From NCBI GenBank assembly GCA_001662655.1, contig KV460215.1: DNA of 64,000 nucleotides. One strand, written 5' to 3'. This document shows positions 8,295 to 37,690 of this stretch, piece by piece. The DNA comes from Pseudogymnoascus verrucosus (Eukaryota). The notes beneath the pieces are model-generated. The model was not told the origin of the DNA and searched no databases. It saw nothing but the letters and a program-made list of their open reading frames with translations. A program made the position numbers and the translations under genes. Within the stretch, counting starts at the first letter, position 1. Each line of letters begins with the position of its first letter.

Positions 8295-8391
8295 ATCTAA
8301 TCAGATGATCTTATAAGTCCCAAATCGGGCCGAATAACCGGCTGGGCAGTGGAGAGTGGGGGTGAGGAGGTCGCAAAGAAAGTTATCAGAT
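8295..8391. promoter_or_regulatory. SreA-type GATA iron-repression elements upstream of sitT
   Basis: ATCTAATCAGAT at 8295-8306 and TTATCAGAT (reverse complement of the SreA consensus ATCWGATAA) at 8383-8391. Confidence 0.7.
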
Positions 8392-10696: not shown

Positions 10697-11583
10697 ATGT
10701 CTCTCCGGTCAAGATCCCTGAATTTCAAGTACTTTAATGTGTCGTTCCCGGATGACAAGATTGTGCAGGTCACATTAAACAGGCCCGAGAAGTTGAACTG
10801 CATTGACCTACCTACGAGCCGGGAAATCCAAAAGATCTGGGAGCTGTTCGACCAAGATGGGAGCTTGTGGGTTGGCATTATCACTGGCACTGAGAGGGCT
10901 TTCTGCACCGGGGCCGATCTACAAGGTAAGCTTGCCATTTTCTGTGCTACATCGGTATTCCCGTTGACGAGAACCGACCGCTGACGCGTGTAGAATGGAA
11001 CGCCATGAACAAGGCCGGGGTGGTTAACGACATGGCTGCACCAGGTCTCGCTGGGCTGCCCCGCCGGAGTGGCAAGAAGCCGATCATCGCAGCAGTGAAC
11101 GGGATATGCATGGGTGGGGGCCTCGAGATGGTAGCTAACTGCGACCTCGTCATTGCATCCTCTTCGGCGATCTTCTCCCTGCCCGAGGCAAAGCGAGGAA
11201 TCGTCCCTGTGGCCGGCTGTCTGCCACGGCTAACACGCACCCTTGGCCTTCAGCGAACCATGGATCTCGTCCTGACGGGGAGGAGCGTGAGTGCCGCGAC
11301 GATGTATGAATGGGGCCTTGTTACGCGTCTGGTGGATGCTGGGTCCGATGTTGCCCGGGCAGCTGTTCAGGTGGCGCAGGAGATGTGCAAGAATAGCCCG
11401 GATGCGTTGATAGTTGGGCGACTTGGAGTGCGGATGAGCTGGGAGGCAGGGAGCGTGGAGGAGACGGTGACGACGCTGGCGAATGAATGGTACCCCCACC
11501 TAGTCAAAGGCGCCAACTTTGCAGAGGGCATCCAGGCATTTGTGGAGAAGCGACAACCTAAGTGGACAGACTCGAAGCTGTGA
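10697..11583 (+). CDS. sidH: Mevalonyl-CoA hydratase (enoyl-CoA hydratase/crotonase family)
   Basis: TLNRPEKLN, AFCTGADL, KPIIAAVNGICMGGGLE, FSLPEAKRG. Intron 10926-10993. C-terminal PTS1 SKL. Cluster context. Confidence 0.92.
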
Positions 11584-11822
11584 GAAGGGATAGCGGCCGA
11601 AATGCAATGTTGGGCTAGGATGAACCTCGGAATAGGGGAAAAGAACTAAAAATTAATCTAAACTATTGAAACGCCCTTGTTAAGTAAATACGCATGGTTG
11701 ATATAGCGTATTATGTTGTATTGGTTAGGACCAGTTGTTTCCCTTGTGGAGTCTGCGTCTTTGCGTCTTGTTGGATGCAACTGCGCTCCTTCCTTGTCAT
11801 CGTTAACGTGGCGTCAGGGGTC

Positions 11823-12499
11823 ATCTTATCAGATGGTACTAGCGTACTTATCAGATGGTACTAATTTTATTATCCCTGCTTGGCGTCTAACTAACCGGTA
11901 CTAGGCGGTACCAACCAGTTGAGTACTGACAGAGCTGTACTCGCTTCCCCCAAATCATCCCAGCTGTCCCGTCCCGGTTTCTTCCAAGTGAAACCCTGTG
12001 GACCGTGTTACGTGTGAACCCTTACGCCATGTGAAAAATCTTCATCTTATCAGATCCTGCATGAGCGATTAACCCCCCATAGCGGGGTACATGTCAGTGG
12101 AGTATTGCTCGGCGGTGTCTTCGCTTCTGTGCACCTTACTAGTAGTGAAGAGGAGCATTGAGCTGTAGCTCTAACATGGGCCCAAAGCCTACAGATAATC
12201 CTGCCAAGTGATAATCCTGTCTAGCAACATGTGCTAGCTGCTACCTGTCAAGTGTATTCCGTGCGGATCGACACGTTTGGTTTAGCTCGTTCCTTCCATA
12301 GAGTACTCGTATACTTGTCGCTCTAGTACTTACGATGCTACACTTTCTCTGCCGTGTATTCCGTAGCTGCTCCCGTCGTTCTAATACTGACCCCCATGTG
12401 GCTGCTCCAATTCTCTTAGCCAAGGCCATAACCCCCCCCCCCCCTGACCCACGAGATGTGTCAAACGGCGATGATATTTATCACGCCATCTGATTAGAT
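11823..12499. promoter_or_regulatory. Cluster of SreA-type GATA elements upstream of the siderophore importer
   Basis: ATCTTATCAGAT at 11823-11834 and 12044-12055, TTATCAGAT at 11848-11856, ATCTGATTAGAT at 12488-12499. Confidence 0.75.
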
Positions 12500-12886
12500 T
12501 TGATAATCGGCAAGTGTCCGCCTTGCCTTCCCTCCGCAAGCTGGTGTGATGGTGGAGTTTGCGTGGGGTTAGGGGGACTACTGTAGGTGGGATAGATGGG
12601 AACCCTACGCGTGGGCTCGTGTGGGCGGCAGAGTCTGCACAGACTGAGAATCCTAGACACTGGTGCATACGACCATGAAGGAAAAGCCCAGAGTCCCTGT
12701 CAATACTTGGCATACACCAGCTTCTCGGCAATAATGATCCGACCTCGGGGTCAATCAATCTTATCAGTATATGAATCTGCATGGCGCTAGAAGTAGACAC
12801 AGCTATAAGCGTAAGGATTTCCATTGTATTTATCCTTTTCGAGTTCTTGGCACACTGTCGTCTTGCTTCTTTCAAAGTCATCAACA

Positions 12887-14908
12887 ATGGCATTGCTTCC
12901 CAAGATTCAGTCTGTTTTCGGTCGTCGGGCGACCGATGATGGAGTAGACTCTGTCCCCGTGGAGTTGGTTGATGAAAAGAAAGATGCTGTCAGACAAGAT
13001 CCTATCAGTGAAGGAAATGAGAAGAACAGAGAAGATCCGGCCATTGGCACAACTGGAACGGACAGCAATGATGAGCAGGACCAACTTCCTACCCAAGATG
13101 CACAACGTGGTGTCCACGATGTTGAGGCCGTCACTCTGACCTGGACCAAGACGACGCTGGTCGCAGTCTTCCTCAAGTACGTTGCTATCCATGCCGCCGA
13201 CTGTCTCTGGCAAGGCCCATCTAACAGTGCGCGTCAACAGCATCTGGTTACTTTACTTCGTCAACGCATTCCAATCCTCGATCCTCTACAACTTGCTTCC
13301 CTACGTTACGAGCGAATTTGAGTCGCATTCGCTGCTGACTGTCATTTACATCGTCGCAAGCGCCATGTCGGCCGCGACGTATATTCCATTGTCAAAGGTT
13401 CTCGATGTCTGGGGTCGTGCTGAAGGCTTCCTTATCATGGCAACTTTCTCCACGCTGGGATTGATTCTTATGGCTACATGCCATAACCTTCCCACCTTCT
13501 GCGCCGCATATGTAAGATTATTTCTTATGCTGTGGCAAGACTTGAAATATTCTGTTGATGCTAACGGTTGGATGCTAGGTGTTTTACAGCATTGGCTTCG
13601 GAGGTATTACTTACTGCGTGGACGTCATCACGGCCGACGCGTCCAAGCTGAAGAACCGAGGATTGGCATACGCCTTCACGTCCTCGCCATATATGATTAC
13701 GGCATTTGCTGGAGCGAAGGCATCGGAAGATTTCTACTATAACGTCAGCTGGAGATGGGGTTTCGGCTGCTTTGCGATCATCTTCCCCATTGTGGCTGCT
13801 CCTCTATACGTTATGTTGAAGGTCAACCTTAAGAAAGCCGAGAAACGAGGCCTCTTGGTCAATGAGAACAGCGGCCGGACGTTTTTGCAAAACGTCTGGT
13901 ATTACGTCATTGAGTTTGATGGTGCGTAACACAGCTTTTGAAGATACCCATGTTGCAAAATACTGACCTTCAATAGCATTTGGAGTCCTCCTGTTCTCTG
14001 TCGGTCTCACCGTGTTTTTGCTGCCCTTCACCATCGCGGATAGCGCCCCCAACGGCTGGTCCTCGGGCTACATCATTGCCATGCTTGTCATCGGATTTGT
14101 CGCGCTTGTCTCCTTTGGCTTTTACGAGGTGTACTTGGCCCCGACACCCATGCTCAACTTCAGCTTTCTCACCGACCGAACCGTCATCGGCGCGTGTATT
14201 CTGAGCATTACATACCAGATCTCTTATTACTGCTGGGCCAACTACTTCACGTCCTTTCTACAAGCCGTCAACAATGTTACCATCGCCCAGGCCGGATACA
14301 TTGGTAACACCTTCGACGTTGTGTCTGGCGTGCTTCTCCTGATTGTCGGTTACTTGATCCGCCGCACCGGCTACTATAAGTGGCTCCTCTACATCGCGGT
14401 CCCGCTGTACATCTTCTCCCAGGGCCTAATGATCTACTTCCGCCGCCCCAACCAGTCAGTCGGCTACCTAGTCATGTGCCAGGTCTTCATCTCCATCGGT
14501 GGTAGCATCTTCATCCTCATCGGCCAGGTCGCCATTCTAGCCGCGGTTGACCATCAGCACGTCGCTGCCGTGCTTGCCCTCCTCAACGTCGCCGGAACCA
14601 TCGGCAACGCCATGGGATCGACTATCTCCGGTGCTATCTGGACGAACACCTTCGAGAAGGCGCTTGAGCGGAATCTGCCTACCTCCGCGCTGCCCGATCT
14701 GTCCACTATTTATGAGGATCTCGAGACGCAGCTAAGTTACGAGGTCGGTAGCCCAACGAGACTGGCGATCCAGGAGTCGTATGGGTATGCGCAGACAAGG
14801 ATGTTGGCTGCAGGGACGGGAATCATGTGCCTTGCGTTCATTTCTCTCATACTGATTAGGAATATTAATGTTGCGAAGGTGGCACAGGTCAAGGGTACCG
14901 TCTTCTAA
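12887..14908 (+). CDS. Siderophore-iron transporter (SIT family MFS), MirB/MirD-like; by cluster position probably the MirD orthologue
   Basis: AQRGVHDVEAVTLTW, FESHSLL, LDVWGRAEG, DVITADASKLKNRGL, SWRWGFG, many transmembrane segments, C-terminal QVKGTVF. Introns at about 13177-13240, 13512-13578 and 13922-13976. Confidence 0.9.
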
Positions 14909-15502
14909 GTGTGCGCGATTCAGCCGTTGGCTTGGAAGAGGTATGTTGGGATAAAATTGTTGGAGATAGTAAGATTGGTGGTATATACTCGCAGATATTT
15001 TGTTTATAATATAATTCATTTAAAACGATCACACCTTTAAAAGACCCTCTCAATACTAGTATCATACACTCGAAGAGACAGCTAAGCGTGGTCTCGCCTA
15101 CTGCCCAACGATAACAGGAGGGAAAGCGCGACAGACCTAGCGGTTGAAACGATGACGAAAGGAGCAAGGGTAGTTGATAATGGATAGGAAAGAGCGATGG
15201 TAAGGTGGTAGCTGCGAATAAGAGGGAAGGGGCGATGGCAGATGACATGAGATATCGAATGGAAGGAGCAACACATCACGGGAGAAAGAATAAGGTGGCA
15301 GGAGCGAATGCCACTTGCTCTGATCCGCTTTCCACCAACTCCCGTGGTAATGACATACGATTCGGGCTGTTGAGCCTTTACGTACTTAAGCACATTTGAT
15401 ATTTAATAATTTACTGATACTAAGAGAATAGTAACAACATACAAAATACTGGCCAGCGCTACATGATCAATCTATTTGGTCCCGTTTCTGGCCGGACCAT
15501 AA

Positions 15503-18500
15503 CTACGCCGCCGCTTCAAACAGTCCACCAAGCATCAACAACTCCGACTGCCGAACCACGAGTTCCTCAACAACAGCAGCTAGCTCCTTCAACACCTCAT
15601 CCACAAACTCAGCATCCCTCTCACTTCCCACAATCCCAACATGCAACACCCCACCCTTAATGAACGACACTGCCTTAAAAGGCGCAGCCGCATCCCCATG
15701 CGGATTCAAAATATCCACCTTACACTCTCCACCAGCAAACGGCATTGTATCGAAGTCCTCAAAGTCCTGATGATGGACAATGGAATCCACTCCCGCCTCC
15801 TTTGACCACTGCGTGCACTTTTCCTTGATGGCGCTGAAGCCCACGTAGTCGTGGGCAGCTGACTCGGCGCTCTGGTTCTGGATGAAGCGGAGTAAGTCGA
15901 TCGCTGTCCACTCCTGCGAAAAGGCGACGCGGAGGGGTGTGAGCTGGTAGCAGGGACCCATGACGTTCTCGATGTTGGGGAGGTTGTTGGTGCGGCCTGA
16001 GGTAACGCTGGCGAATGTTACGTCTGCAGTGCGGAGACGGCGGGCGAGGAGGAGTGCCCAGGCCGCTGATAGAAGAGTGGCCGTCGTGATGTCCTGGAGG
16101 GGGGTGAAGGTGGGGACGGGGTGAGTCTGGAAGGTTGCTTTGTCCGTGGGTTGGGTGGAGGGGCCGGGTAGGATGGAGAGGGTGGAGGCGTTTAGGAGGT
16201 TACGCCAGTAAGCGAGGGCATTGTTGTGGGCACCAGTGTTCGAAACCAGTGTCATGTACGAGGAGAATGGTTCGAAGTCGACGATTTTTGCGCCGGTGTA
16301 TAGGGTTTCCAGGTCTTGGAGCAGGCGGGGGAGAGACATGCCGTCGTATTGGGCGTGAGAGAGGCCTATGATGAGGCACTCTTGGCCGTCATTGCATTCG
16401 ACATGTAGCAGCTTGAAGAAAGATGATCCAAGGCGGAAGTCTGATTCTATGTGCGTGTTGCAAAAGTCGGCAACATATTGCTTAAGATCACCATCCGCCT
16501 TATGCGTCATCACAGGTGATTCAAACTCATCCAAGACGACTTGATAGAAGGTTGACTCGTGCTCGATGAAAACGGTGCGTAGGATATCGTGGGTCTTGAC
16601 TAGCTCCTTACAGGCGTCAAACAATTTCTGGCGATCGATGCCGCTATCGAAGTACAACATGGTATATTGCATCGACGTCCGCGGTACCTGGAGGGTTCCT
16701 CTAATATCAAGTGCTTGGGAATCCGTCACTGTGCATACATCCTGAATAGAACAACGCGGGTCGACAAGTTGCGGCCGAACAATCGTCGATAGGAATAGAT
16801 CCTGATCCAAATTGCCCAGTGTCGAAAAGCGCCTGTAAGGCTGGACCTTCGGTTTTGGAGCTTCACCTATTTTCATCACTTTGGCTGCGTCACCGAGACG
16901 CATGTGCCGGAATATATCGGCAACAGTCAAAACGTGTCCCAGGGTACGGAGACGTGATACCAATTTCATGGCGTAGACGGAGTCGCCTCCAATACGGAAG
17001 AAGTTGTCATCAACGTCTATCTTCTCTGCGTCGATTCCAAGAATAGTAGCCCAGGAAGACCGCAGAATATCCTCAGCAGGTGTCAAGTTTTCATTCGCAG
17101 AGCTTTTCGTCCATGCTTCCTCTGTACTTTCATGGATCTGAGTGAGTACGTGTCGTGGAATGGTGGAGGCGAGCTTGTTGAGCACACCATGGTTAATCTC
17201 GTTTGACTCCGCGGGCAGTTTGTCAACTACGACGTATGCTGAGGGGACCATGTATGACGTGAGAGAGTCTTGAATGAATTTGTCGAGCTTCTTCAGTGCC
17301 ACTACAAGACCGAGGGGAATATTGGCACATATGGCCGTCTTGAAACTTTGTGGGTCAGACGGGTCGGATGTTATATCGTGTGGGACCGACATGATCTCAA
17401 CACTGTCTCCCTGAGAAGGCTGCTGTTCGATGAAGATGACTAGTTCTTGCTCCGGCACCTGCTGAGTAGTATCCGATGATTGGAAGAGGGCTGCAGCGGC
17501 ACGAATAGTAGGTGGAAGAAGTCTTCTGAAGTGGCCCTCAAGATCTCCAATATCCACTGTGTGCCCCTGGAATGACACGACATTCTCCTTTCGACCGATA
17601 AATACCAAGGTGTTATCTGGTTGCAACTGAACCATGTCGCCTGTCGCCTGCGCTCGGCCCCTGCGGCCGACACATGTAGAGCTGCCAGCCTTGAGCCAAG
17701 GAGGAGACTCAACAGTTTCGCCAGAAAGGAAAGCCCCCTCAAGCCACAGCTCGCCAGTACAGCCGATGGGCGACAATAAGGATGAGTTTCGCGGATCACA
17801 CACCCAAGGTATCACTGCGCGAGGATAGATCGCCCCTTGTGTAATACTTGCACCTGCTCGAAGTCTCGAAGACTCGTCCAAGGCCAATGGTGGAGTTTGA
17901 TTCCATTGCCAGATCTGGTCCAATTCCACCTCTGGAACGCATGATATCTCGTCGACTCTCCGGGATGGGTCTTTGGTCAACTGTAAACACGCCATTTCTA
18001 GTTGCGCAAGGATTCGTTCCATTTGCTTAACCTCGATCAGGCTGCTGTCAAAACTGGCACAGACTCTGAAGCCGGCCTTTTGGATTCCACAGGCTAGCAT
18101 AAGTGGATAGGGGTTGAAATGGAGCGCTTCGCGCACGGCGTCTCCTTGGCTGAAGCCAAGATCGCCGTCTACATACACTGGCTCTGGCTGAATGACCAAG
18201 CCTGTGCTGGCCTCGCATGCATGCTGAGCGTCTCGGCTGACCTTTCTGATGTTCTGCATCCCCATATGCTGATACGGCGTGCGAGCTAATATGCCTTGTT
18301 GCACAGCACTCAGATAAGATTCGACTGAGCTCTTACGGTCAAATTGTATGCGAACGGGTACTGTAGCTATCAATGGACCGATGATACTTTCAACCTCCTG
18401 CAACGGAATATCTCGACCCATGAGTGTCTCGCCGAACACGACATCATCGCTTCCTGTGTACTGCGATGCTACGAGCGCCCACGCGCCGCGAATCAGTGTT

Positions 18501-23789: not shown

Positions 23790-25613
23790 TTATGAGACGA
23801 CAAGTTCAAATACCGCATTCTCTTTCAAGGAAAGAATGAAATCAATGGTATATACAACCTCACTTTTCCCTTGATGGTTGATATGCTCAGTTGTACCAAT
23901 CTGGGGATCTTGAGAGATTTTGGTCGAAAGTGTGCAACTGGTAGCACCTTCCTCAATTATCACAGCCCCATTTTCTATGCGTGGTCGCACGAACGATACA
24001 AACCTCTCAGCAACATCCATTGGCCGAGAAACTTTGATCTCATCCAGAAGACTCAAGCGCCCTGTCTTATTATCGAATGAGAGGCGTCGCACCAGCGACG
24101 TCAACCCGCTCACGGCGTAAGTAGGGGCAATATCCATTGAAATTGATCCATTCTGATCAAAAATGACATTTCGAGCGCAATATTCTCTCCCATCACGTTG
24201 GCTGTGTCCATCGACAATGGGAACATTGTGGCTTTTAGAAGAGGTGCAAAAGGTGTCGTAGCGATCGGGCCCAAAGTATGACTTCGTGTACTCTCCCTTG
24301 CCAATATCACATAGGAGCATTACACCATGTCTTGAAAATAGAAAGCTTCCGACATCATTGTGGTTGTGTTCCTCATCGTTATGGCCTGCTTTCGCCGCAA
24401 ATCCAGTGCCATCATTGCCGCTGCACAACAGCCACTGAGCCTTTGGGTATACCACGCAGGGTTGAGGCAGTGCCTGCTTCGACACAAGTGTATCTGTAGT
24501 CCATAGCAGATCACTTAGAGCAGGAGCAAAGTTGTAACAATGCGAGTGCATTACATCCATGGCGCTCTCTAACGGTGGGGCCATCACTTCTTCGAAATGC
24601 TCTGCCAAAAAACATGTGACGCCTGGCCGATATTTGTCGTTTGCTTCAACATCCGAGAATGTGAGCGTTGCAGCTCCTGGGAAGAAGCAATTTTGCTGAA
24701 ATAAAGCGATAGGAGCAAATCTTTTATCGGAGAGCAGGTCAAGCTTCCCAGCTGTTCGTCTGCCGAGAAGTTCTGCAAACACCACAAAAAAGCTTACTCC
24801 ATACGTCCAGTAATTTAGGCCCTCAGTGCAGGCACCATCTTCACTGAATCCGGCAATATATCTCTCCATTACAGGCAGCAGATTTCGGAGGATAGCAGCG
24901 AGATCCAGATCGTTTCCAACGAGAAGCATGGCGGCACTGCCAATGCTACCAGCGCAAACCGCACACCAGTTACTATCCAACACTTCCCAATGCTGGATAG
25001 TCGATTTATCCATGTAGCTGTCGATGACCCGACGCATGACTTCTGATTGGGCTCGCTCGACAATAAAAGGATTGAGCTTATCACCGAGCAGAGCACATAT
25101 TTCTGCAAGTGCTAAGCCAGTCTCGCAGGCGAAAAGGTCGAGGTTCAATGCAGCATCCCGGCGTTTGCTGGTGTTGGAATAACCAACATTGGTTTCAATA
25201 GTTAGGCTGGACCCGTGCATATGTGAAGGCAAACTCCACGTGTAGTCGTCACATAGGGCCCAAATACACTCCTCGAGCGTTCCAATGTCTTCCGGGTCGT
25301 TCCATAACCACGCGCTAAGAGCAGAGACCAGCAGGGTCTTGCGCCGCGAAAAGTATGGAGCTTCGTATCCGAGACGCTCGCCTACGGTATCGAACAGCTT
25401 GAACATCCGGAATGGAAGCACAGGGATGTCCTTGCCTCGAAGCTCTTCCGCAGCACTCTGGAGCTTGTCGCGAGAAGTTTGTAGAAGCGGATTGTTCAAC
25501 ACTCGATCAATGGTTTCCCGTTTTCCCGCCCATCGAAGCAGGTCATATCCAAATGCACCGTCGTCGGTTCCAGAAGCCAAATCTCTGCATAGTTTACCAA
25601 TGTCGACGTTCAT
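23790..25613 (-). CDS. Heparinase II/III-like family protein (putative oligosaccharide/polysaccharide lyase), intronless, no signal peptide
   Basis: 607-aa single ORF. Motifs DLFACETG, NWCAVC, DGACTEGLNYWTYG, FSD, AKAGHNDEEHNHNDVGSF, LLCDIGKGEYTKSYFG, SHNVPIVDG match the heparinase II/III-like architecture. Confidence 0.8.
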   Translation of the reverse strand: MNVDIGKLCRDLASGTDDGAFGYDLLRWAGKRETIDRVLNNPLLQTSRDKLQSAAEELRGKDIPVLPFRMFKLFDTVGERLGYEAPYFSRRKTLLVSALSAWLWNDPEDIGTLEECIWALCDDYTWSLPSHMHGSSLTIETNVGYSNTSKRRDAALNLDLFACETGLALAEICALLGDKLNPFIVERAQSEVMRRVIDSYMDKSTIQHWEVLDSNWCAVCAGSIGSAAMLLVGNDLDLAAILRNLLPVMERYIAGFSEDGACTEGLNYWTYGVSFFVVFAELLGRRTAGKLDLLSDKRFAPIALFQQNCFFPGAATLTFSDVEANDKYRPGVTCFLAEHFEEVMAPPLESAMDVMHSHCYNFAPALSDLLWTTDTLVSKQALPQPCVVYPKAQWLLCSGNDGTGFAAKAGHNDEEHNHNDVGSFLFSRHGVMLLCDIGKGEYTKSYFGPDRYDTFCTSSKSHNVPIVDGHSQRDGREYCARNVIFDQNGSISMDIAPTYAVSGLTSLVRRLSFDNKTGRLSLLDEIKVSRPMDVAERFVSFVRPRIENGAVIIEEGATSCTLSTKISQDPQIGTTEHINHQGKSEVVYTIDFILSLKENAVFELVVS

Positions 25614-26210
25614 TGTGCTCTTTCCCGTGATGTGTTGGTGCTCTCGCTATGACCCTTCTTGTTGGGAATATCCTGTGTGGAATCAGCGGTTTACTGGTAG
25701 AAATAGTTGTATTGGGCGTTTCCCCAATTTGTGGGCTGAATGAATTACAGAAAAGACTAGTTTAACGGCCTCGATTGTGTGGGCGGCGATTTTTGAGATG
25801 TAAGAAAGAACAGTTGTGGAAGTATGAAGATAAGGGTCGACAGTGAGAGGGGAAGCTAGAGTTTTTGAACTGGGGTTGTTCCGTACACACGGCAAGGCCA
25901 ACACGCCAAATACACTCGAGTACTTAACCCCTACACAAACACAGGCATTGGCAGTATACTAGTGCTACCTAGTGTCATTAAAGCTCGTGTGTTTACTTGG
26001 GAGCTTAGATGCTATTGCGTATGTTTTCTGCCTAACATTGCTGATTCTAAGTCTAGATCGTGGAAGTCTAGATGCGCCCGCTGTTAGAAGGTATCATACA
26101 GGAGTATTCATCATACAGGGATATATATACAATTATGTAAACCCATCGTTGTTGATCTGTACGGAGACATAGAGAGTGGTTTATTTATATACCTCTAGGA
26201 ATTGGGTAAG

Positions 26211-27535
26211 CTATGGGCCATGGAACTCATAGCCTGGAAATCTACGACTGTAACTGTAATAAGTGTCTTCATCTTGAGTGTGGTGGTGAAACCCGGACGA
26301 CATAAATTCGTAAACGTTTTCAGCACCGTTCTCCCAAAGCTGCGTCTCAAGGCGCTCGACTTCTTCCAATGTCATTTTTTCTTCTTCCAACGTTATGTCT
26401 TCTTCTTGCACCGTCACGCCGTCGACTCTTCTACTACACCTGTCCTGTTCTATAATAAAATCCGGGAGCTCGTGCAGGACGGGAAAGTCAGCCTTGTGTT
26501 CCACTTTCAAGTTACCGATAGGCCCTTCCTGGCAATGCCAGCGCTGGCGAATTCGTCGCTCGATAGTGAATAGTGACGACGAACTCTCTTGGAAGTAGTG
26601 AGTATCCGGTTTCGCATAATGTGGATGCAACTTCGGAAGATTAAGCGCGACATCCATGTGCGGCATCGTTTCCTCTTCAGAGTGAGCCTGCGTGCGTGCT
26701 AATAGAGCAGCGATCATTGGACGCATAGCTACGCGCTCGTTGACGAATGACCACGAAGGTCTATCGTCGTGGTCTAACCAGATGTGGAGGCTGCGAAGTT
26801 GCGGAAGTTGGCAGATGGCCGGCCAGAGATGCTCCCACGCAGCGCATCCTACTGATACTGCTCTCGTGTGAGGACCAACTACCAAAACCAAGTCTTCATC
26901 TTCGTCTTTCTGTAGTACCTCGTAGAAGGCTAGTGGGAGTCGGAAGGCGATATTAAGTTTACGAATTCTGGGACTTATGTAGTCGCGGAGGTTCCAGGCG
27001 CAATTTGAGTCACTAATTAGCTCATTTGGCTTCAATAGCAACATTTCCAAGGTGTCTATATCCGTGACGTTGATCGCTGTTGTCTTAACAACAACGTTGC
27101 AGGCATCGAGAAACCTATCAGTGGGAAACGACTCTAAGCAAGGGGCGAGTTTAAGTGAGGAATAAAAGAAATTGTTTACATTTTCTTGCACACAAAAAAA
27201 AGGTCGTACGTATGATAACGGCGATGCTCGCGCAAGTCCGTCCTTTCTCTGTACGCAGCCTCCTCGCATTCCCAATGCACCCCCCATGTAGACCGGAGAC
27301 GGCGGGCCCACCCAGGATCATCCCGCCTCCAGTGAGTCGTAGTTACACGCTCGCGGCCATCATGACGGTCATCACCCAAGTTCGGTTGAAGGCATGCCGA
27401 CAGCTGAATTCTGCCCTGCCACAAAAAAGCGTGAGTCTGGCCGTGGAAGATCTGAGCGTATATTGCTTGACGAATCTCGACAGGCATCGACAGCAGTTTG
27501 CTCTCATGCTGCGAGTACACGTGTTGATCAAACAT
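26211..27535 (-). CDS. Hypothetical fungal protein with F-box-like N-terminal motif (DUF7730-like), 2 exons
   Basis: MFDQHVYSQHESKLLSMPVEIRQAIY. Intron at about 27116-27178 (AAAAT|gtaaac...tgatag|GTTT) joins the two ORFs. Contains WEHLWPAICQLPQLRSLHIWLDH. Confidence 0.65.
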
Positions 27536-27851
27536 ATTAGTTGAGGGGAAGATACAAAGTAGATGTTGTTGCTTTGCAAGGTGGGATATTTGGACAGCAA
27601 TTACAATTATCCCACGCGTTTCCCCGCACCACAATATGGACCCCTGTGCGTTAATTGTGGACCCCTGGAGCTTATTCCCCGCACTTCACTCGGCATCAGG
27701 CGACAGCTGCCACCGTCGGCTGAAAGAGCTCGGGCATCGGGCGAGCTTCACCGGGATATTTAGAAGGGCATCCCCACACATTTCAGACGCCTTCACAGTC
27801 ACGCAAACCCAACACCGGAGGAATGCGTAGCAATACGGACCGGTGACTGAG

Positions 27852-30800
27852 ATGGAGTCAGAGCCTCCTATCTCGAGCCAAGTGGACGACCGACCTGCCT
27901 GTGGAGCATGTCGCAAGCGTAAGCTTCGGTGCTCACGAGAAACGCCATTATGCAATCATTGCCGAAGACAAGGTAAGCTTGGTATCCCACAAGTCCAGTC
28001 CACAGCCAAGGAATCTTGGGTGTATTTGTATTCACAGGTTGGGTATCTAGGGTCGGTCTGCGCATACGACGGTGACCGCGATAAACCTGGTCTCAAAACT
28101 GGAGCAGTTGAAGCCTTGAGGAGACGAGTTGGTAAGCGAGCCATGAAGAGTTCGTCTCTGAAAATTACAAATTTAACAGTACAGGAATTAGACGCCCTTG
28201 AGGCTGCCGTTTTTGAGCAAGGCGCGGCCTCGGGTGAAGGCGAGCGGCCAGCCTATTATAGCAACAGAGATACGGCGTCAGCAATTCGTGATGGGCTGGA
28301 ATTGCTCTTTGAGCAACTGCAAGCTCAACCACGGCGGAAAAGGCGTTGGTCACAGACGTCTGAGGCTGCCGCTGCTCGGCGTGAACATGGAGATGTGCAG
28401 CAACTGCAACTGCAACTGCAACAACCACAGGCACAAACCGAGATCCCGTCTTTGCCGTCTAATAAACGGCGAAGAGCGGATACAGGATTGATTGAGCCAG
28501 ATGATTTGGATGATCTATCTGACAGTTTACCACCACCAGAGGTTCTCGAGGCAGTCATTGACCTATATTTTTTGTTAGTTCAGCCATGGATTCCAGTTTT
28601 CCATGAGAAGAGATTTCGCCGACGGCTGAAAGACCCTAACAACAAATATCGTTTGGAGGTGGTTCTGCACGCCATGTTGGTGGCGATGCTCAAGCATGTT
28701 GATCGCAGACAGATCACAGTAGATCTTGGCGATATCGAGAGCATCTGTGAACGGTCCCGTAAAATTGTAATTTTAACCGCGATGGATGAGTTGCATGTTG
28801 AGAATCTCCAGGCACTGGTCATTATATGCTTCGAAGATGTGCGTTCTCTCTCCCCTTCTATTTTAAGGCGGGCTAGTGAATTGACTTCTCCATTTTATAC
28901 AGATTGGGTCCGGAAGAGTCTCTCGTGCATGGCCACTTGTCGGCTCTTTAACAAGGACTGTAGAATATCTTCAACTAAGTGTTGAGTCCGAGGACCATGA
29001 TAATGGTCCAATGCTCCAGCCGCGGCCTTCGTTGCCCCCATCAGAAAACTGGGTAGAGGAAGAAGAACGGCGAAGGGTATTTTGGACAATTTTCAACTTG
29101 GATAGGTAAGTCCTCCGCCGTCATAAGAGTGCTTGCGAGAAGTAATTCTAACAGCACGGGTGGCAGGTTTTGTTCTGTGACCACTGGGTTTGTTTGACAT
29201 CCCCGATAAATTTCGGGCTTATGGACTAATTTTTGTAGTTGGAATACTAGCCTAACATCAAACGATGTCCATCGACGCCTACCGGCTGATGGGGGCCTGT
29301 GGCACAATGAAGAGGCAGTCACAACCCCCTTCTTTGGCATCTGGGACAAATCCGAAGGGAAAATTGGAAATCTCATCGCCTTTCTCCCAAGAGATTACAA
29401 TGCCGCTGAACCATCTCGAGATCGATATCGCCAAGGTGCAGAAAATATTCGCGAACCCGACGCATCAGAACAAAAGGTTGACTTGTCGACTGTGGGCGCA
29501 TTCGCGTATCGGGTTGAAGCGACCGAGTCGCTGAGTCGGGTTACGACGTTTTTCCTACAGCAGAAAATAAACTATCGCAATCGACAAGAAATGGGCAGCT
29601 GGCTCATGAGATTTAAGGAGTTGGATTTACGGTTGGTTAGGTATGCATGTTCTTTTTGCTCCTACGAGTGCTCCTCGCCACCCTCACCATCCCCGCTAAC
29701 CAATGTCTACAGCTGGAAAATGTTCCTACCACAGAAATGGAAAGATTCGAATATTTCACGCCAACCAACAGTGGTAACTATGGACCCGAATTTGACTCTT
29801 GCGCATATCACCCACAACACATCAATGATTTTGTTACATCAACGGATCGCCTACCCGCCTCTCGAGTGGCTTGAAGTTGTCAAGCTTCCAACACTATCTA
29901 GTGCGGAGACTTGTGAAGCTGCAGCTTCTGAGACGGCTAATATCACTCAAAAATATATGGACAACTCTCCTGCTCAGGCTGTTGTAGATAACCAGTTTGC
30001 ATTTTGCGTCTTTGTCAGTGCACGTGTTCTTTTAGGTTTGTTTCTAATGTCCTCGTGCGACCAGGTGTTGCATTCAGTTTACGTACTGATATAATATCAT
30101 AGTTCACTGGCGCTACTACAAAACGGACCTCTCTAAAGATTACTGGACTCTAATGAAGTTTCTCGATATCATGTCAGGACGCTGGTCAGGCCAAAATCGC
30201 GCACAACCCGCAAGCCAACAAAATTCTACTGCTAAGTACTTCAACCAGCTAAACGATATATACAACAAGTGTATAATCGATCGGTCGTTTAAGTTAGATG
30301 TTCTTGGGTACTCAAATGAGATTGAATGGACAGGAAAAAGAGTTGTTTCTCGAGATAGCCAGAATGGGCACGGTGTGCGGGAAGGAGATGGTAGAGACGC
30401 CAGCGAAGTAGAGACTGCCCGTATCGACGCGGCTATGAGTACGAATGGCGATCATCAAAGTGCACAGGTTCGCCATGTGCCAGGGATGTCTCCGTTTCAG
30501 CGGCGACCAAGCGACGCCCCAGCTTATATGGGCGTTTCGTCACTGAATGACTCCTCGTCGGATATCCCACAACAACCTGTGCATAGTTTACACTCGGAGC
30601 CCTCCTCGGCGTATCATCCCTCTCAATTTATGGACGCCCAGGGGCCAGGTATACTTAATTCTAGCGACGGAAACTCAAACAATGCAGCAAATAATCCGAT
30701 GATGTTAAACTCGCCTTCTGCGCGGATGGGCTACAACACAGGAAGCCCGGATGAATTAACCGCGGTTACGTCGATTCTGCTAGACCAGCAGTACTCGGAA

Positions 30801-30863
30801 ATGGACAGGATTATTAGTTTGAACAACGCGTATTTTGCGTCAGATGTAGCATACATCCAGTAG
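27852..30863 (+). CDS. Zn2Cys6 transcription factor with fungal-specific TF (Fungal_trans) middle domain, multi-exon
   Basis: [22 protein letters not shown]...(intron)...[44 protein letters not shown]. Several GT-AG introns. Confidence 0.88.
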
Positions 30864-31232
30864 AACGGCTTTTCAATTTGTTTCTTACTTGATGGCTTCT
30901 TTTATTAAAATACATGCATTTAAGTGTGAAATAATTCCAGAATTACGATTATTTAAACTATGAAATGACTCAAAAGAGCCTGGTGGTTCCATTAAAGAGG
31001 ACTATATATACGTACATGTATGGTATTCTATTTTAAACAACTGTATGTAAGGCAAAGTAGCTATTCCAAGGGAACCGGCAAGGATTCCGAGCTCTCCAAA
31101 CTCCTCCGAGACTTAGTCCGATAGACCCCGCCACGTAAGGAAAATAACAAACAGAGCTCCCCATATATAATTATCGCCACGGAGTAAAAACAGTGCAGAA
31201 TAACAACACATTAAAAAGCGTATACTATCAAG

Positions 31233-33571
31233 ATGCCACCACTTCCCGGATTCTCAGACAATCCGTTGAAGGACAGGGACGATATCATTCAAGCTGCAAT
31301 CGCATTCATCAAGCCACTACACCAACACATTTCTCCAAGCGGAGCATTCGTCCGTCTGCCTACCTCAACCGGTGCTCACTTTGACGAGGGCGCAGCACGC
31401 CTCGAAGGCTATGCGCGCCCACTCTGGGTGGTTTCAACCCTGCTACATTCAGTGCAGTCTGATCAGGCCCACGCCGAGACAATCAGGTCACTAGCTCAGC
31501 CATGGATTAACGGTATATGTGCAGGAACAAACCCAGATCACCCCGAATACTGGGGTTCCATTTATAATGGCGATCAACGCATGGTTGAGGCCGAAGTTAT
31601 TGCCTGCGCATTGCTTTTCGCGCCAAAAGAGTTCTTCCATTCGCTTGAGGAAACGGCTCAAGCTAACATCGTATCATGGCTGCGTGGTATGAATGGAAAG
31701 GACATGCCATTGAATAACTGGAGATGGTTTCGTGTCTTCTCCAACCTGGCATTGGTACTCGTTGCGGGTATTCCTCATGCGGAAGTGAAAGAGGAGATGG
31801 AGCGAGATCTAGCCGTCGTCGATTCATTTTATATTAGCCAAGGCTGGTCGGGAGATGGGCCGTGGAAGACACCTGAGCAAGAAGCAGAAGAGGAGAGAGA
31901 AAGCGCCGAACATCGGCGGCGTGATAGGATTGGATGCGGGCGCCAAGCTGACTACTATTCTGGTAGCTTTGCTATCCAATTCAGTCAATTGCTGTATTCT
32001 AAGTTTGCGGTCAGCTTAGATCCTGAACGAACAGCGACGTACCAGCAGCGGGCTCGAGACTACGGAAGTTCCTTCTGGAGATACTTTGACGCGAGTGGTA
32101 AGTTGTTACTAGCCATCAACAGTTGAGTCGTAAATACAATTTATAACAATGAATACTAACAATGAGTACGCAGGCGCCGCTATTCCGTTTGGACGCTCTC
32201 TGACATATCGTTTTGCATGTGGCGGCTTCTTTGCTGCGCTTGCAGTCGCTGAAGTTCCAGATATGCCCACTCCTGTATCGTCACCGGGCGAAGTCAAGGG
32301 ATTTCTACTTCGACACCTTCGGTGGTGGGCCCAGCACTCCGATGATATCTTCTATCCCGACGGGACTATGAATATTGGATATATGTACCCGTAAGTTGAA
32401 ACAAATAACCCACCAGTTTCCCGCTAATACAAGTACTAGAAACATGTATATGGCTGAAGACTACAACTCTCCTCAATCAGTCTATTGGAGTCTTAAGTCC
32501 ATGGTTGTAATATGTTTGGGAAAAGACCACGAATTCTGGTCTACCCCAGAAGCTCCGTATCCCGTCTTTTCTTCCGTTAATAAGGCCGACTTGGAGAGCT
32601 CTACCCTAGAAGACATTGCCCCCGTTGAGGTGATCCCCCCACCAAATCAAATTCTATGCAATCAGCCACATGGTGGCCACCACTTCCTTCTGTCACCGGG
32701 TCAATTTGTTGCTTGGCCTATGAAAGCAAACCAGGCGAAATACTCCAAATTTGCCTACTCGTCTGCCTTCAGTTTTAGTGTTCCTACGGGTCCGCTAATC
32801 CAACAGATTGCACCCGACAGTATGTTGGCCCTTAGCCGGGACGGCGCATCTACGTGGGCTGTGAAATGGAAATGCTCACCAGTTCAGTTTTCGACTACGA
32901 AATTACAGTTAGAGTCATCGTCGATTGCAGAGACGGTACCACTGGCGCGTGTAGAATGGCGTCCCTGGGAAGACGGGCAAGTGAGTGTCACAACGACACT
33001 TATCCCGCCAACCAGACGCTGGCCTGATTGGCATGTCCGTATCCATCGGATACGACTCGGTCGCCCGGAGAAGCTCGACAGTTTACATCTGCTAGAAGGC
33101 GGGTTTGCCATCTCCCGGGTTCCAGCCAGCAGCAGCAAGAGGAACCTTCCACTACTATCAGATGATGATTCTTCCCTATTGAATATCAAAACTGGGGGGG
33201 AAGGGGTCTACTCGTCGAGTACCAGCGCTCTCGTCTTATCCGCGGCTGGTGCAAGCGGTATTCGCGGCATTGCTAGCCGTTCTGGTGACACGCCTATTAC
33301 GACTGAGCATGATGCAATGAAGCCAGACTCTAACACCAATTTGACCGCTCAAAGAACATTTATTCCCATTACAACTCACGAGATCTTCGACTTTGACTCG
33401 ACGTCCGAGATTGAGTTGGTGACAAGCGTATTCGCTATCTCGACGCCAAATGATACACACACGAATGGCAGGACGCTTCGGGAGAGATACTTGGACATTC
33501 CTAGGATTCATATTCAGGGCCGACAAACTTCATTAGAGTCAACTCAAGATAGCATTATCATTGACGGATAG
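31233..33571 (+). CDS. DUF2264 family protein (probable GH154-related glycosidase), intracellular, 3 exons
   Basis: [77 protein letters not shown]. Introns at about 32098-32173 and 32390-32440. The GH154 link is from memory of the family and needs an HMM check. Confidence 0.82.
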
Positions 33572-33842
33572 GAGTGATAGATATATGGAAATGTAGCTTT
33601 AGGTCACTTGTAATCAAATCTTAAAACATGATTTCGAACGGATTTCTCACATGAATTTATACTTGTTTCAGCCAACTCACATTTCGCGCTACCTAACCGT
33701 GAGTGCCTTCTTCGCATCCAGTTTATTTCTACCATCTGCGCACTGAATTTATGTATGTATTGAGACTCTAAATATATATAAATGAGTAAGGTATCAGTTC
33801 GAATTCCCTGTCTGGCTGTACATTTCCAACACAGCGTATGCA

Positions 33843-35522
33843 TTATAAGAGGCCCATCCTCAAAAGCTGATTGCCAAATTCTAGCAGATAATAATCAGCA
33901 TATACGAGACCGTGATTGCTGTAACGATCATGATCATTGGAATTGTGATTGGCTGTGGCATTCTTCAAAATAGCGTCAAATCGTTGGCCTGCCACGGCAT
34001 CTTCGACGCGGATCTTCTCTGGGCCACCCGTGTGGTCCGCAAATCTAGCCTTTTCAGTCGACAGAGAGAATTCCAGGGTGTCAGTGACAATTCTTATTGC
34101 TGCGGAACGGTATCTCTCTGCCAGAATTTCGTCGCCAAGTTCCACCATAGACTGCGACAGAAGCAACATGCCATTGGCGGCAATGACGCCCGCTGAAGAA
34201 TCTCGGAGAGGGTTGGATTCGTCTTCGATTGGAGCATCGAAATCCCATAACGGCACATAACGACCAATAGTTGGTGATCCGGATCCAGCGGTTGGCCGCT
34301 CGACACAGGCTGGTGACGTCTCCAATCTCCACAGGAAATACTCTGCCATGCCGCACGCCGTGGAGAGAAACTCTCTATCCCTGGACCAATTATACGTCTG
34401 CGCGTATCCGAAAATACCCCATGCCTGACCACGGGCCCAAGTTGACTCTGCACTATAACCTTGGGCTGTGCGACGCTCTTTTACTTCTCCAGTTTGTGCG
34501 TCAAAGTTGATGACGTGGTAATGAGAGTAGAGCATGCCCTTATATCGCGTATCCGTTCGGCCTGGTGGTGTTTCTGGCCTAAGATTTGATTTTATGAGTG
34601 TCTTCGCGTGCGTGATGGCGATTTCAGCGTAAACTGGGTCTGAAAAATGCGACGAGGCGTAGAACAGCAAATCAAGATTCATCATACTGTCTATAATGAC
34701 CAAAAAGTCTTGTGTCATACTGGTGATTGAGACATCTGCTTGACTCAACACATCCCAACTGCGGATTGCGCTCACAGCAGGGCTATACCGGCTGGCAAGG
34801 CTTTTTGCCGCAGTTAAAACAGCCTGCAGACTGTTCTCGTTACTCGTTAGCTCCCAATCCTTTCTTACTGATGGCTGAATGATAAACCCCATATCGTGGG
34901 TGTCTATTCGCGACTTCATTGCCTCCACAGGTCCAGTCCAGTCCTTGCATAGAGAAATAAGTTCCTGGCGAAGTAATGAACTCGAAAAGTGAAGGCTGTC
35001 CTTTTCGTGACCGAGATACGGGAACACTCGTGGATACTTGACTGCGCGCTCTCGCAATAGATATAGGATACCAGGAAAGAAGCCACACGTCCAAAAATCT
35101 GCATCTCGCAGAAAATATTTCCCTGCATCCTCGCCTCTCTGTGGAACAAACTCGGGATACACTGTGGGCGGATTCTAATGAAAATAGTTAGAAAATTAAC
35201 CAAAATTACATCTTGGCTGGACTTGTACATTATTTCCCAGTGCTTCTATTGCCACTCTTAGTGTCTTAGCAAGGATATTCTCTGAGAATATCTCTAGAAG
35301 TTTTTCCATATTATAGGACTCATTCGGAGACTGTGATGTGACCATTTCCCCAGACTGGTAGTCTGATACCGATGTATCACTTGGAGGGGTTTTCAGCGCA
35401 CTGTGGTCCGACTCGTCTTTTGATTCTCCGGAACTGATCGGAGAGGCCATATCGAGCGCTTCCTGATTGAGCACAAGAGAATCATGTGGTTGTATCGAAG
35501 TTGGAATATCCGAAGTGGACAT
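33843..35522 (-). CDS. GH88 unsaturated glucuronyl hydrolase, intracellular, 2 exons
   Basis: DFWTCGFFPG, DTHDMGF, VIIDSMMNLDLL, TAQGYSAESTWARGQAW, WDFDAP, RDSSAG, YADYYLLE. Intron 35175-35228. Confidence 0.92.
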
Positions 35523-35781
35523 GATTTGTGATTTGCTGAGTTAGGCTGTTCGTCAGAGCAGTAAGGTAACTTCACAGTTGAAAATTCTCAATGTGAATAA
35601 AAGCAACGAGTAGATGGTTAGTCTCTTTTTACGCCCTCCTACATTTATGGTGCCACCTTTCATTACCTTCAACGGCCGATATAATTCTCTAGTCTGTGAT
35701 TGGGAATCGAACTTTGAGCCAGTCAGTGCGAGTCCTACATCGGAAAAAATGTCCCCGGGCACATTTGCCCGACGCACGTTG

Positions 35782-35985
35782 CCCCGCATCCGTCCCATCC
35801 CAATTTGGCGATAGCTCCGCGCGCAAGATACGCCGACCTTTTTCCCACGCGATTGACAATTGAACACCAAAGCTTTTGCGTGACAGCTCCGACGATGCCC
35901 ATAATTAATTCGCGGAGTATAGAGGTCCACGCGCCAGATTAGCCTTAACCCCACATCCCAGCCCTCGGTTTGTCGAATTGCGGGG
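35782..35985. promoter_or_regulatory. Cluster of CreA-type (SYGGRG) carbon-catabolite repression sites in the GH88/transporter divergent promoter
   Basis: CCCCGC 35782, CTCCGC 35815, GCGGAG 35912, CCCCAC 35949 and GCGGGG 35980: five sites in about 200 bp. Confidence 0.45.
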
Positions 35986-36085
35986 AATGCTTATAAGAAA
36001 GCCTCATGAGACCGTCCCCAATGATAAATATTTTCTCCCATACAATTCCGCTGAGCCAAGAGGACTGCTACATCCAAGAGGAGCC

Positions 36086-37690
36086 ATGGCAGACTTCGCA
36101 CACTCCGACAACTTCGAGGGACTGCAACTTAAAGATGTAATCCCACAAGGGCGCAAGCCATGGTACAAGGACACGACACTCATCAAGCTCAATACTCTTA
36201 TGTTATGTGCCCTCATCACCCAAATCGCCTCCGGGTATGACAGCAGTATGCTCAATGGGATGCAATCCCTTCCTGAGTGGAAGGCTTACTTCGGCAAACC
36301 AACTGGAACCCGGCTTGGTGCCATGACGTTTGGCCCTACCGGCGGCACTTTGATTTCCGTTTTGGTTTCATCACAGCTTTGCGAGCGATTTGGTCGACGA
36401 TACCCAATTTGTGGAGGTTCTCTAATTATCATATTTGGTTCGATTTTACAGACTACTGCCGTGAACTACAGCATGTTCGTTGCTTCGCGGTTCTTTGTCG
36501 GATTTGGTCTCGGAATTGTGGCTACGGCTGCCCCACCGCTTCTGAGTGAGGTCGCATATCCTACACATCGCGGCAAACTGGTCTCGTTCTACCTTGTCAC
36601 CTGGCCACTGGGATCACTTATTGCGGCATGGGTCACATTCGGGACACGCACGATGACCGGTTCTTCGTGGACTTGGAGGCTCCCAAGCGTTCTTCAATGC
36701 TTTTTCTCACTCGTCCAGGCGGTGTTGAGTCTCTTTGCGCCAGAGTCCCCTCGATGGCTCATCTACAACAATCGCAGCCAGGAAGCATTGGATATCTTGA
36801 CCAAATATCATGCAGATGGAGACTCAAACTCACGACTGGTACGATTTGAAATGGCTGAGATCACTGCGACATTAGAAGTTGAAAAGGTGCAAAAGATGTC
36901 TCGCTGGGCCGAATGGATTTCCACCAAGGGCAATCGACACCGCCTCTTTCTTGCCCTCTTTATCCCCGCCATGCTACAATGGTCCGGCAACGGTCTGACC
37001 TCGTACTACCTTGCCAAGGTACTCACAACGATCAACATCACCGACTCCAAAACTCAGCTTATCATCAACGCCTGCCTTTCCGTGTGGAGTTTTCTTACAG
37101 CCTGTTTTTTTGCCACTCTCGTCGATCGAATGGGCCGCCGGCGTCTCTTTCTCTACGGTATGGGCGGCATGGGGATATCCTATATCATCTGGACTATCTG
37201 CTCCGCTACCTACGAGCAAAGGGGTTTCAAAGGCAAGGGGTTTGCGGCTGCGGTGTTGCTCATGATCTTCGTCTTTAGTGCCTGCTACCATATGTGCTCG
37301 CCAGTGGCGCCGACGTACATCATGGAAGTTGTACCGTACTCTCTTCGCGCGAAGGCATCCATGTTGTATCAACTAACCGGCAATCTTGCTGGTATCTACA
37401 ACAGCTTCGCCAACCCAGTTGCAATGGATGCGATCTCATGGAAGTACTATATCGTCTGGTGCGTCGTCATTGGTATAAACTTCACTTTGATTTTCTTCTT
37501 TTTCCCAGAAACGAAAGGGTTGGGTCTCGAAGAAGTAGCAGAAATTTTCGACGGACCTGATGCTCTATTTGGTATGAATGCGATGAGAGAAATGGGTCTT
37601 GATGTTAATGCGGACAAGTCTATGGCAATTGGGGATGATCAAGGGTCTATGACAGGAAAGAAGGAAGTTTCACATACTGAGAAGGCTTGA
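36086..37690 (+). CDS. Sugar porter (MFS), lactose/cellodextrin-permease-like, intronless
   Basis: GYDSSMLNGMQ, ERFGRR, EVAYPTHRG, WRLPS, PESPRWL, QWSGN, DRMGRR, FPETKG. Confidence 0.9.
   Translation: MADFAHSDNFEGLQLKDVIPQGRKPWYKDTTLIKLNTLMLCALITQIASGYDSSMLNGMQSLPEWKAYFGKPTGTRLGAMTFGPTGGTLISVLVSSQLCERFGRRYPICGGSLIIIFGSILQTTAVNYSMFVASRFFVGFGLGIVATAAPPLLSEVAYPTHRGKLVSFYLVTWPLGSLIAAWVTFGTRTMTGSSWTWRLPSVLQCFFSLVQAVLSLFAPESPRWLIYNNRSQEALDILTKYHADGDSNSRLVRFEMAEITATLEVEKVQKMSRWAEWISTKGNRHRLFLALFIPAMLQWSGNGLTSYYLAKVLTTINITDSKTQLIINACLSVWSFLTACFFATLVDRMGRRRLFLYGMGGMGISYIIWTICSATYEQRGFKGKGFAAAVLLMIFVFSACYHMCSPVAPTYIMEVVPYSLRAKASMLYQLTGNLAGIYNSFANPVAMDAISWKYYIVWCVVIGINFTLIFFFFPETKGLGLEEVAEIFDGPDALFGMNAMREMGLDVNADKSMAIGDDQGSMTGKKEVSHTEKA

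Follow-up and report, generated by a model that had tools for sequence, protein, structure and literature searches.

Positions 23,790 to 37,690 of a 64,000-nucleotide stretch of Pseudogymnoascus verrucosus contig KV460215.1 (this whole stretch is the window below) hold a gene cluster built in two layers: a recurrent four-gene core, comprising a Zn2Cys6 regulator, a DUF2264/GH154 protein, a GH88 protein, and a CDT-2-like sugar porter of the major facilitator superfamily (MFS), and a lyase gene as an add-on. From protein sequences and structural models, we consider it fairly probable that the cluster encodes a cytosolic pathway that uses elimination chemistry to strip beta-linked glucuronic acid (GlcA) from small oligosaccharides after their import. 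The original prediction for this DNA, made from the letters alone, placed five carbohydrate-related or regulatory genes in this span; all five are present as intact models, each an open reading frame (ORF) once GT-AG introns are removed, together with a sixth, DUF7730-domain gene between lyase and regulator that had gone unmentioned.

25613-23790, minus strand: lyase, 607 aa, one exon, intronless
about 27535-26211, minus strand: DUF7730-domain gene (Pfam DUF7730 at 5e-5 and 0.035 on two ORFs)
27852-30863, plus strand: Zn2Cys6 transcription factor, 856 aa, 8 exons and 7 introns (exons 27852-27972, 28051-28131, 28180-28838, 28903-29105, 29167-29187, 29239-29640, 29713-30035, and 30103-30863; intron 2 acceptor uncertain)
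31233-33571, plus strand: DUF2264/GH154 protein, two-domain, 737 aa (exons 31233-32097, 32174-32390, and 32440-33571)
35522-33843, minus strand: GH88 protein, 541 aa (exons 35522-35229 and 35174-33843)
35523-36085: divergent intergenic region between GH88 and porter, 563 bp from ATG to ATG
36086-37690, plus strand: MFS sugar porter, 534 aa, one exon, intronless

Within the core, the DUF2264/GH154 protein is a probable beta-glucuronate dehydratase by its sequence and modeled fold. It matches Pfam DUF2264 (3e-122) and DUF2264_C (8e-58), and the earlier equation of DUF2264 with GH154 was borne out by four matches that carry the NCBI name GH154. A profile of 20 fungal homologues matches only 8OI4, 9O4U, and 9NWF (9e-22 to 9e-20), and the structural model superposes on the same three with Z scores of 33.5–36.7 (root-mean-square deviation 3.3–3.5, 366–368 residues aligned), the next family scoring 20.2. 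BcGDH of Bacteroides caccae and the two-domain BT3677 are reported to dehydrate non-reducing-end beta-GlcA to a 4,5-unsaturated uronate; the BcGDH product is cleaved by GH88, and GH154 genes often neighbor GH88 or GH105 genes (PMC12269599). All ten residues mutated in BcGDH have their counterparts in the fungal protein (E58, R62, N161, N162, W163, F166, Y242, R296, Y300, and Y369), nine of them placed by hidden Markov model (HMM) alignment to 9NWF/9O4U numbering. Across 43 aligned sequences, none of these residues varies except N161 (kept in 27), and the Tyr/Tyr/Arg set that BcGDH forms with Y229, Y289, and R285 is kept. Because a GH154 dehydratase generates the unsaturated end that GH88 removes, a core of this kind needs no lyase.

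The GH88 gene product is, judging from sequence comparison, an unsaturated glucuronyl hydrolase (UGL). All eight of its PDB matches are GH88/UGL enzymes, including 3WIW (3e-33) and the UGL of Bacillus sp. GL1 (1VD5, 2e-25), and the 1VD5 residues D88 and D149, which we take to be catalytic, correspond to its D192 and D260. Both aspartates and their surrounding motifs are likewise kept relative to 3WIW and the Streptococcus agalactiae enzyme 2ZZR. UGLs act on lyase products such as a xanthan trisaccharide (PMC10881899). Unlike the bacterial enzymes, the fungal GH88 clade bears an acidic N-terminal extension of roughly 70 residues. Of the three enzymes put forward for a Pfam check, the lyase and DUF2264 protein were assigned by Pfam and GH88 by solved structures: at E<=0.1, Pfam finds no family for the window protein (P0407) or its A. 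nidulans and Oidiodendron homologues (P0172 and P0430), of which the Oidiodendron one is named GH88 by NCBI. As PF07470 misses this clade, we do not treat it as defining, and the pairing of GH88 with GH154 would escape cluster scans that rely on Pfam. We found no characterized fungal GH88 in the literature searched.

The prediction that all three enzymes lack signal peptides agrees with a crude hydropathy screen (not SignalP), which found no hydrophobic N-terminal stretch in the lyase, DUF2264 protein, or GH88, nor in 13 fungal-clade lyases, 7 spirochaete lyases, and 11 GH88 and 7 DUF2264 homologues. Afu7g05090, the A. fumigatus GH88, is also listed without a signal peptide (PMC5883313). In the pathway that we propose, the CDT-2-like porter would take up short GlcA-containing oligosaccharides, and the GH154 protein, to go by its fold and residues, would dehydrate a saturated non-reducing-end beta-GlcA to a 4,5-unsaturated uronate. 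By its family chemistry, GH88 would then free the unsaturated residue as 5-keto-4-deoxyuronate, exposing the next sugar. In Pseudogymnoascus and Oidiodendron, the added, probably bacterial PL33-like lyase might cut internal 4-substituted GlcA and supply the same GH88, which would widen the core from GlcA-capped to internal-GlcA fragments; the adjacent Zn2Cys6 protein, given its conserved adjacency, may induce the genes. Linkage and residues support the earlier idea of an intracellular import-then-degrade module for uronic acids. Its claimed sameness with a bacterial polysaccharide utilization locus (PUL) holds as analogy only, since the cluster has neither a SusC/SusD pair nor a secreted enzyme.

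The proposed check by synteny revealed recurrent linkage, which in fungi we read from locus tags, accessions, equal contig sizes, fused gene models, and one published gene table. With equal contig size as proxy for a shared contig, GH88 and DUF2264 matches lie together in 29 of 36 non-Leotiomycete ascomycete species (18 of the 29 on contigs under 500 kb), far above the chance expectation of about 1 of 36. None of the linked species appears among the lyase matches listed (the best 120 of 610, of which 24 carry an organism name), indicating that the two genes mostly persist where this lyase is absent. The lyase thus stands outside the widespread core, whose conserved logic is not lyase-then-GH88. 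Within Pseudogymnoascus, the lyase is two or three locus tags from DUF2264 in all nine strains that list both (three in 7/9, two in 2/9) and GH88 adjoins DUF2264 in 6/6 of these; one strain has its lyase on a separate contig. GH88 and lyase of Oidiodendron are four accessions apart on a single scaffold. P. destructans is absent from the 13 named entries of a 32-member DUF2264 cluster (P0241) and from all other match lists, and may be missing the gene cluster.

All four core genes seem to follow the same order in Aspergillus fumigatus. Its published gene table runs Afu7g05080 (1995 nt), 05085 (2103 nt), 05090 (GH88), and 05100 (cdt-2-like, 1605 nt) (PMC5883313); the last is the same size as the window porter (by length, not by sequence comparison), and AN3991 (A. 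nidulans, 64%) is the annotated orthologue of AFUA_7G05090. The window regulator (Pfam Zn_clus 2e-4, Fungal_trans 0.01) shares 70% identity with the N-terminal portion of models from A. fumigatus and A. lentulus in which regulator and DUF2264 are fused, which implies that in these species, as in the window, the two genes lie side by side in the same orientation; from these fused models, we infer that Afu7g05080 and 05085 are regulator and DUF2264. In a Fusarium fused model (P0300), a short-chain dehydrogenase/reductase domain forms a short C-terminal tail. The A. niger GH88 gene, which we take to bear the identifier An01g01340 (its GH88 identity is confirmed in published tables), is not among the 120 listed matches; next to it lie a regulator and a GH27 gene. 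This A. niger GH88, of uncertain orthology, is reported to depend on AraR (PMC5617896, PMC5701360, PMC5847190); we give it little weight.

The porter (Pfam Sugar_tr, 1e-80) looks like a lactose-permease/CDT-2-type transporter from the automatic annotation of its relatives, some named 'lactose permease' at 42% identity; among representatives of 50% clusters, its best match comes from Umbelopsis (49%). The 563-bp divergent promoter that it was said to share with GH88 proved exact. This region holds two GCGGGG sites, presumably CreA-like, and a near-perfect 20-bp palindrome centered on CCCGGG with CGG/CCG flanks (35744-35770), a candidate Zn2Cys6 site. Five of the 27 GCGGGG sites in the window fall in the 1277 bp of three cluster promoters, a hint only, as it was noticed post hoc; across the window the motif is not enriched (27 seen, 28.8 expected).

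The added gene probably encodes a PL33-like polysaccharide or oligosaccharide lyase with the signature of subfamily 2. It matches Pfam Hepar_II_III_C (4e-8), and its top solved relatives are BtPL33/BcPL33 (6e-39), ahead of PL35 (4e-17). Its AlphaFold2 model (pLDDT 92.7) has a two-domain fold, an (alpha/alpha)6 toroid plus beta-sheet, nearest to PL33 structures: Foldseek ranks 1-10 are all PL33 (E 1e-34 to 6e-33, TM 0.75–0.78), with PL35 behind at 2e-24. N215, Y268, and H416 align with the PL33 catalytic residues N238, Y291, and H444 (numbering of PMC11848413), and R80, H131, W216, Y442, and F447 with R103, H154, W239, Y470, and F475, R80/H131 being the GlcA-binding pair of the +1 subsite and Y442/F447 tunnel residues. 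The catalytic residues are invariant in 60/60 aligned relatives, the full set is kept in 59–60 of the 60, and all 60 carry, like V219, the subfamily-2 valine at the W242 site. The invariant Y271 aligns with a histidine that we count as 294; the covariant His-to-Tyr change is placed at 'position 301' in PMC11848413. Fold, catalytic Asn/Tyr/His, +1 subsite Arg/His, and tunnel Tyr/Phe are thus alike between the fungal lyase and the PL33 enzymes BtPL33HA (BT4410), BcPL33HA, ObPL33gellan, and ObPL33CS, in a comparison made with solved PL33 members and not with the two characterized subfamily-2 enzymes. For PL33, PMC11848413 names bacterial phyla; the present enzyme has a fungal host.

Nested among bacterial sequences and without introns, the lyase gene was probably acquired by a fungus from a bacterium. 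The named proteins among the 120 listed matches come from nine Pseudogymnoascus (81–97%), one Umbelopsis (44%), 12 spirochaetes (44–48%), one Anaerolineaceae, and one Cohnella, and a cluster look-up adds Oidiodendron maius (75% identical to the window lyase), two further Pseudogymnoascus strains, and a second Umbelopsis, so that Pseudogymnoascus, Oidiodendron, and Umbelopsis are the only named fungal holders in these sets. In phylogenies (a 94-row FastTree and a 46-row IQ-TREE subset), the fungal lyases and five unnamed rows, two of which (P0020 and P0021) could be bacterial, form one clade (100/99) nested in bacteria, its place among spirochaetes receiving moderate support (82–89). Both Umbelopsis strains hold a fungal-clade lyase and the best-scoring porter relative on different contigs (P0036, P0387, P0453, P0603). 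The walls of Mucoromycota contain glucuronic-acid polymers, a possible substrate. A single bacterial locus (L013), and no contig from a fungus, came out of a metagenome scan with the lyase.

The predicted co-occurrence of DUF2264 with GH88 in bacterial loci also stood. Among 13 loci around bacterial lyase relatives (24–33% identity; several are short, and none comes from the closest spirochaete group), DUF2264 is present in three, GH88 in three, and both in two (L003 and L011), where the three families are adjacent. In L011 (Clostridiales, 641-15829), a LacI regulator, an ABC importer, a PL33-like lyase, DUF2264, and GH88 stand in a row with GH2 and GH95, so that this locus holds the triad in compact bacterial form.

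Pseudogymnoascus is a Leotiomycete. In our trees, its DUF2264 protein is sister to Talaromyces (98/96) within a Eurotiales clade (100/99; 26/48 rows), and its GH88, with that of Oidiodendron, falls among Eurotiales (27/46 rows). Approximately unbiased (AU) tests reject Eurotiales-only clades (DUF2264, p 1.2e-4; GH88, 6.7e-5 with Thermoascus and 0.003 without); the regulator's identity to that of A. fumigatus points the same way, and no further Leotiomycete is named among the best 120 matches of DUF2264 or GH88. We regard fungus-to-fungus movement of the core as likely, not shown, since the tested groups were picked after the first tree, paralogues exist, and the trees hold no vertically inherited control gene. 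Ancient paralogy with differential loss could give the same positions: several species carry two DUF2264 or GH88 copies, Penicillium DUF2264 rows fall within Sordariomycetes, and the trees sample only the best 120 matches. Set against the Talaromyces pairing and the AU tests, we hold this account to be somewhat unlikely.

Different activities for the GH154 protein must also be weighed. The original prediction made it a hydrolytic beta-glucuronidase parallel to a lyase-then-GH88 route, which we now find very improbable; on its sequence, it is probably not a beta-glucuronidase. BT3677 was itself originally described, in an arabinogalactan paper, as an exo-beta-1,6-glucuronidase. GH154 has since been re-described as glucuronate dehydratase: hydrolase signals of BcGDH were lost in cleaner, LacZ-free preparations, BT3677 dehydrates, and no hydrolase-type acid/nucleophile is present (PMC12269599). 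The fungal protein keeps the dehydratase active site, so the p-nitrophenyl glucuronide assay suggested for it would probably read negative, and a hydrolase would leave the lyase-free pairing with GH88 unexplained. Slightly less doubtful, if still quite unlikely, is an exo-lyase that eliminates not only water but the 4-O substituent (methanol from 4-O-methyl-GlcA, or rhamnose). In arabinogalactan, GlcA caps frequently carry a 4-O-methyl group or rhamnose, and the GH154 model, C-terminal beta domain included, aligns full length with PL33, PL35, PL17, and PL15 lyases (TM about 0.45–0.49). The mechanism described for BcGDH is also lyase-like, but the two-domain BT3677 dehydrates methyl-beta-glucuronate (PMC12269599), and an architecture common to GH154 and lyases shows no function.

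That the four-gene core works as proposed while the lyase is merely a transferred neighbor, with another substrate or control, strikes us as unlikely, though it has more in its favor than either alternative activity. DUF7730 separates the lyase from the core, the lyase upstream region shares neither GCGGGG nor a common motif, only fragmentary sequencing-run contigs of relatives cover the gene, it is unlinked to the best-matching transporter in Umbelopsis, and 9/13 of the bacterial loci, several of them short, have neither partner. Against this, its linkage is retained across the nine Pseudogymnoascus strains and Oidiodendron at 75% lyase identity, the same three families adjoin in two bacterial loci, and by family chemistry the lyase product is the GH88 substrate. 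Several observations weigh against the cytosolic elimination pathway itself. The lyase and GH154 protein are only about 20–21% identical to characterized enzymes, Y242 was matched to BcGDH Y229 by motif across an insertion and not by HMM alignment, and 7/36 species lack equal-sized GH88 and DUF2264 contigs (4 may be different strains). Characterized PL33 enzymes are endo-acting on polymers, a mode poorly suited to the cytosol when an MFS porter supplies the substrate; the spirochaete relatives also lack signal peptides, and L011 encodes its ABC importer. Three purified PL33 enzymes are reported as inactive on the panel tested in PMC11848413. No CG-containing 7- or 8-mer is common to at least three of four upstream regions, that of the lyase has no GCGGGG site, and no secreted depolymerase, neutral-sugar glycosidase, or KduI/KduD-like gene turned up among the 39 of 139 window ORFs (stop-to-stop, at least 100 aa) scanned against Pfam.

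Expression data count both for and against the cytosolic pathway. On steam-exploded bagasse versus fructose, the A. fumigatus GH88 and transporter genes rise by log2 fold changes of 2.78 and 3.08 (PMC5883313). They reach only about 1.5 FPKM (fragments per kilobase per million mapped reads) while 1181 genes rose, and the presumed regulator and DUF2264 genes are absent from the differential lists provided with that study, so the bagasse response may be plain derepression. AN3992, numbered next to AN3991, has been likened to a predicted beta-glucuronidase (PMC8359064). Such expression and annotation hints lean toward plant arabinogalactan-type glucuronides for the core. Among substrates, GlcA-beta-1,6-Gal of arabinogalactan-protein or gum type is the leading candidate, short of an even chance; bacterial exopolysaccharide (gellan- or xanthan-like) follows at some distance, the remaining possibilities together are rated slightly lower, and glycosaminoglycan is the least probable of those named. 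The cluster has no hexosaminidase or sulfatase. By analogy, the lyase family leans instead toward gellan- or chondroitin-like chains, the substrates cleaved by characterized PL33 subfamily-2 enzymes (PMC11848413).

We put forward only tentatively a wider, joint reading in which many filamentous ascomycetes, A. nidulans and A. fumigatus included, run a cytosolic dehydratase-plus-GH88 glucuronide route, possibly removing 4-O-methyl groups, and the Pseudogymnoascus/Oidiodendron version is a two-transfer mosaic that rebuilds the bacterial triad. The core would then come from, or be shared with, Eurotiales, and the PL33 gene from a spirochaete-related bacterium, passing also to or from Umbelopsis; the lyase-dehydratase-hydrolase triad might feed on bacterial, plant, or animal acidic glycans.

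In MAL and LAC4-LAC12 clusters, a permease and an intracellular enzyme share a divergent promoter beside a linked Zn2Cys6 activator. The window has this layout (permease, intracellular enzymes, linked Zn2Cys6 gene, divergent promoter), and of MAL-type co-induction the A. fumigatus data show two of four genes weakly up together on bagasse. It differs from the MAL type in its predicted uronic-acid elimination chemistry, as opposed to one neutral-disaccharide hydrolase, and in its bacterial-type lyase. PUL25 of B. caccae (BcPL35, BcGH88, BcGDH, and BcGH109; PMC12269599) likewise unites lyase, GH88, and GH154 in one locus, with the same GH154 fold, ten active-site residues, and GH88 as common exit step. 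Unlike PUL25, the fungal core is eukaryotic and intron-bearing, its lyase is PL33-like and not PL35, its GH154 has two domains where BcGDH has one, and an MFS porter and Zn2Cys6 protein replace SusC/D, with no GH109 or peptidases. Haloarchaeal glycosaminoglycan loci (PL8, GH88, GH154, and an ABC importer) extend the same enzyme logic outside Bacteroidota, but with a secreted PL8 lyase and a sulfatase, neither of which the fungal cluster has (PMC13260240). A strict Bacteroidota PUL combines co-localized carbohydrate-active enzymes, transporter, and regulator, as found here, with SusC/SusD and surface or secreted enzymes, in place of which the window has an MFS porter and enzymes without signal peptides. 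By analogy, then, the cluster is a MAL-type layout predicted to run the chemistry of B. caccae PUL25 and not a strict PUL.

The view that no fungal pathway of this composition has been characterized is upheld by the open literature, which yielded no account of a GH88-GH154 cluster or a PL33 enzyme in fungi (subscription journals lay mostly outside this search); GH88 and GH154 go unmentioned in the accessible portion of PMC13009009. Many fungal genomes carry annotated GH88 and GH154 genes, with no tested function found in the literature searched. A cytosolic GH88 without a lyase previously made little sense, and the dehydratase finding of 2025 makes the pairing concretely testable. If true, the pathway would be a eukaryotic route of glucuronate release, implying a missing fungal 5-keto-4-deoxyuronate pathway and a candidate importer of acidic oligosaccharides, and would include a fungal PL33-like lyase in a catabolic cluster grown by recruiting a bacterial gene.

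The gene models rest on several lines of evidence. Database proteins P0391 and P0407 agree without a mismatch with the spliced models of DUF2264 and GH88, respectively, and the closest named proteins for lyase, GH88, and DUF2264 among the matches listed are from Pseudogymnoascus. Contigs from four of 12 listed sequencing runs skip five of seven regulator introns, one of two DUF2264 introns, and the GH88 intron, all at matching GT-AG ends, which shows that they are spliced transcripts from this organism or close relatives; the RNA status of these runs is a guess, none being recorded as RNA. Thin run-contig cover of the lyase is no evidence of silence. GC content at third codon positions is 0.47–0.56 in cluster genes and 0.54–0.73 in their neighbors; the lyase does not stand out, and we did not use this as transfer evidence. 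The DUF7730 gene, possibly a passenger, shows no resemblance to the fused regulator-DUF2264 model of A. fumigatus.

The right flank (41879-63385) encodes two FAD-binding, berberine-bridge-like oxidoreductases, a carboxylesterase, an RTA1 protein, two fungal transcription factors, a gamma-glutamyl cyclotransferase, a protein kinase, and a ZIP transporter, with no tie to the cluster seen. To the left of the lyase, 3525-23677 holds an ABC transporter, a GNAT acyltransferase, an enoyl-CoA hydratase, an MFS transporter, a SidD-type non-ribosomal peptide synthetase (Pfam SIDD_N), and a DUF1749 hydrolase. This siderophore-type cluster, presumably the one for fusarinine C/triacetylfusarinine C (TAFC) with the DUF1749 protein as SidJ esterase, abuts the lyase and so marks where the uronate cluster ends on the left.

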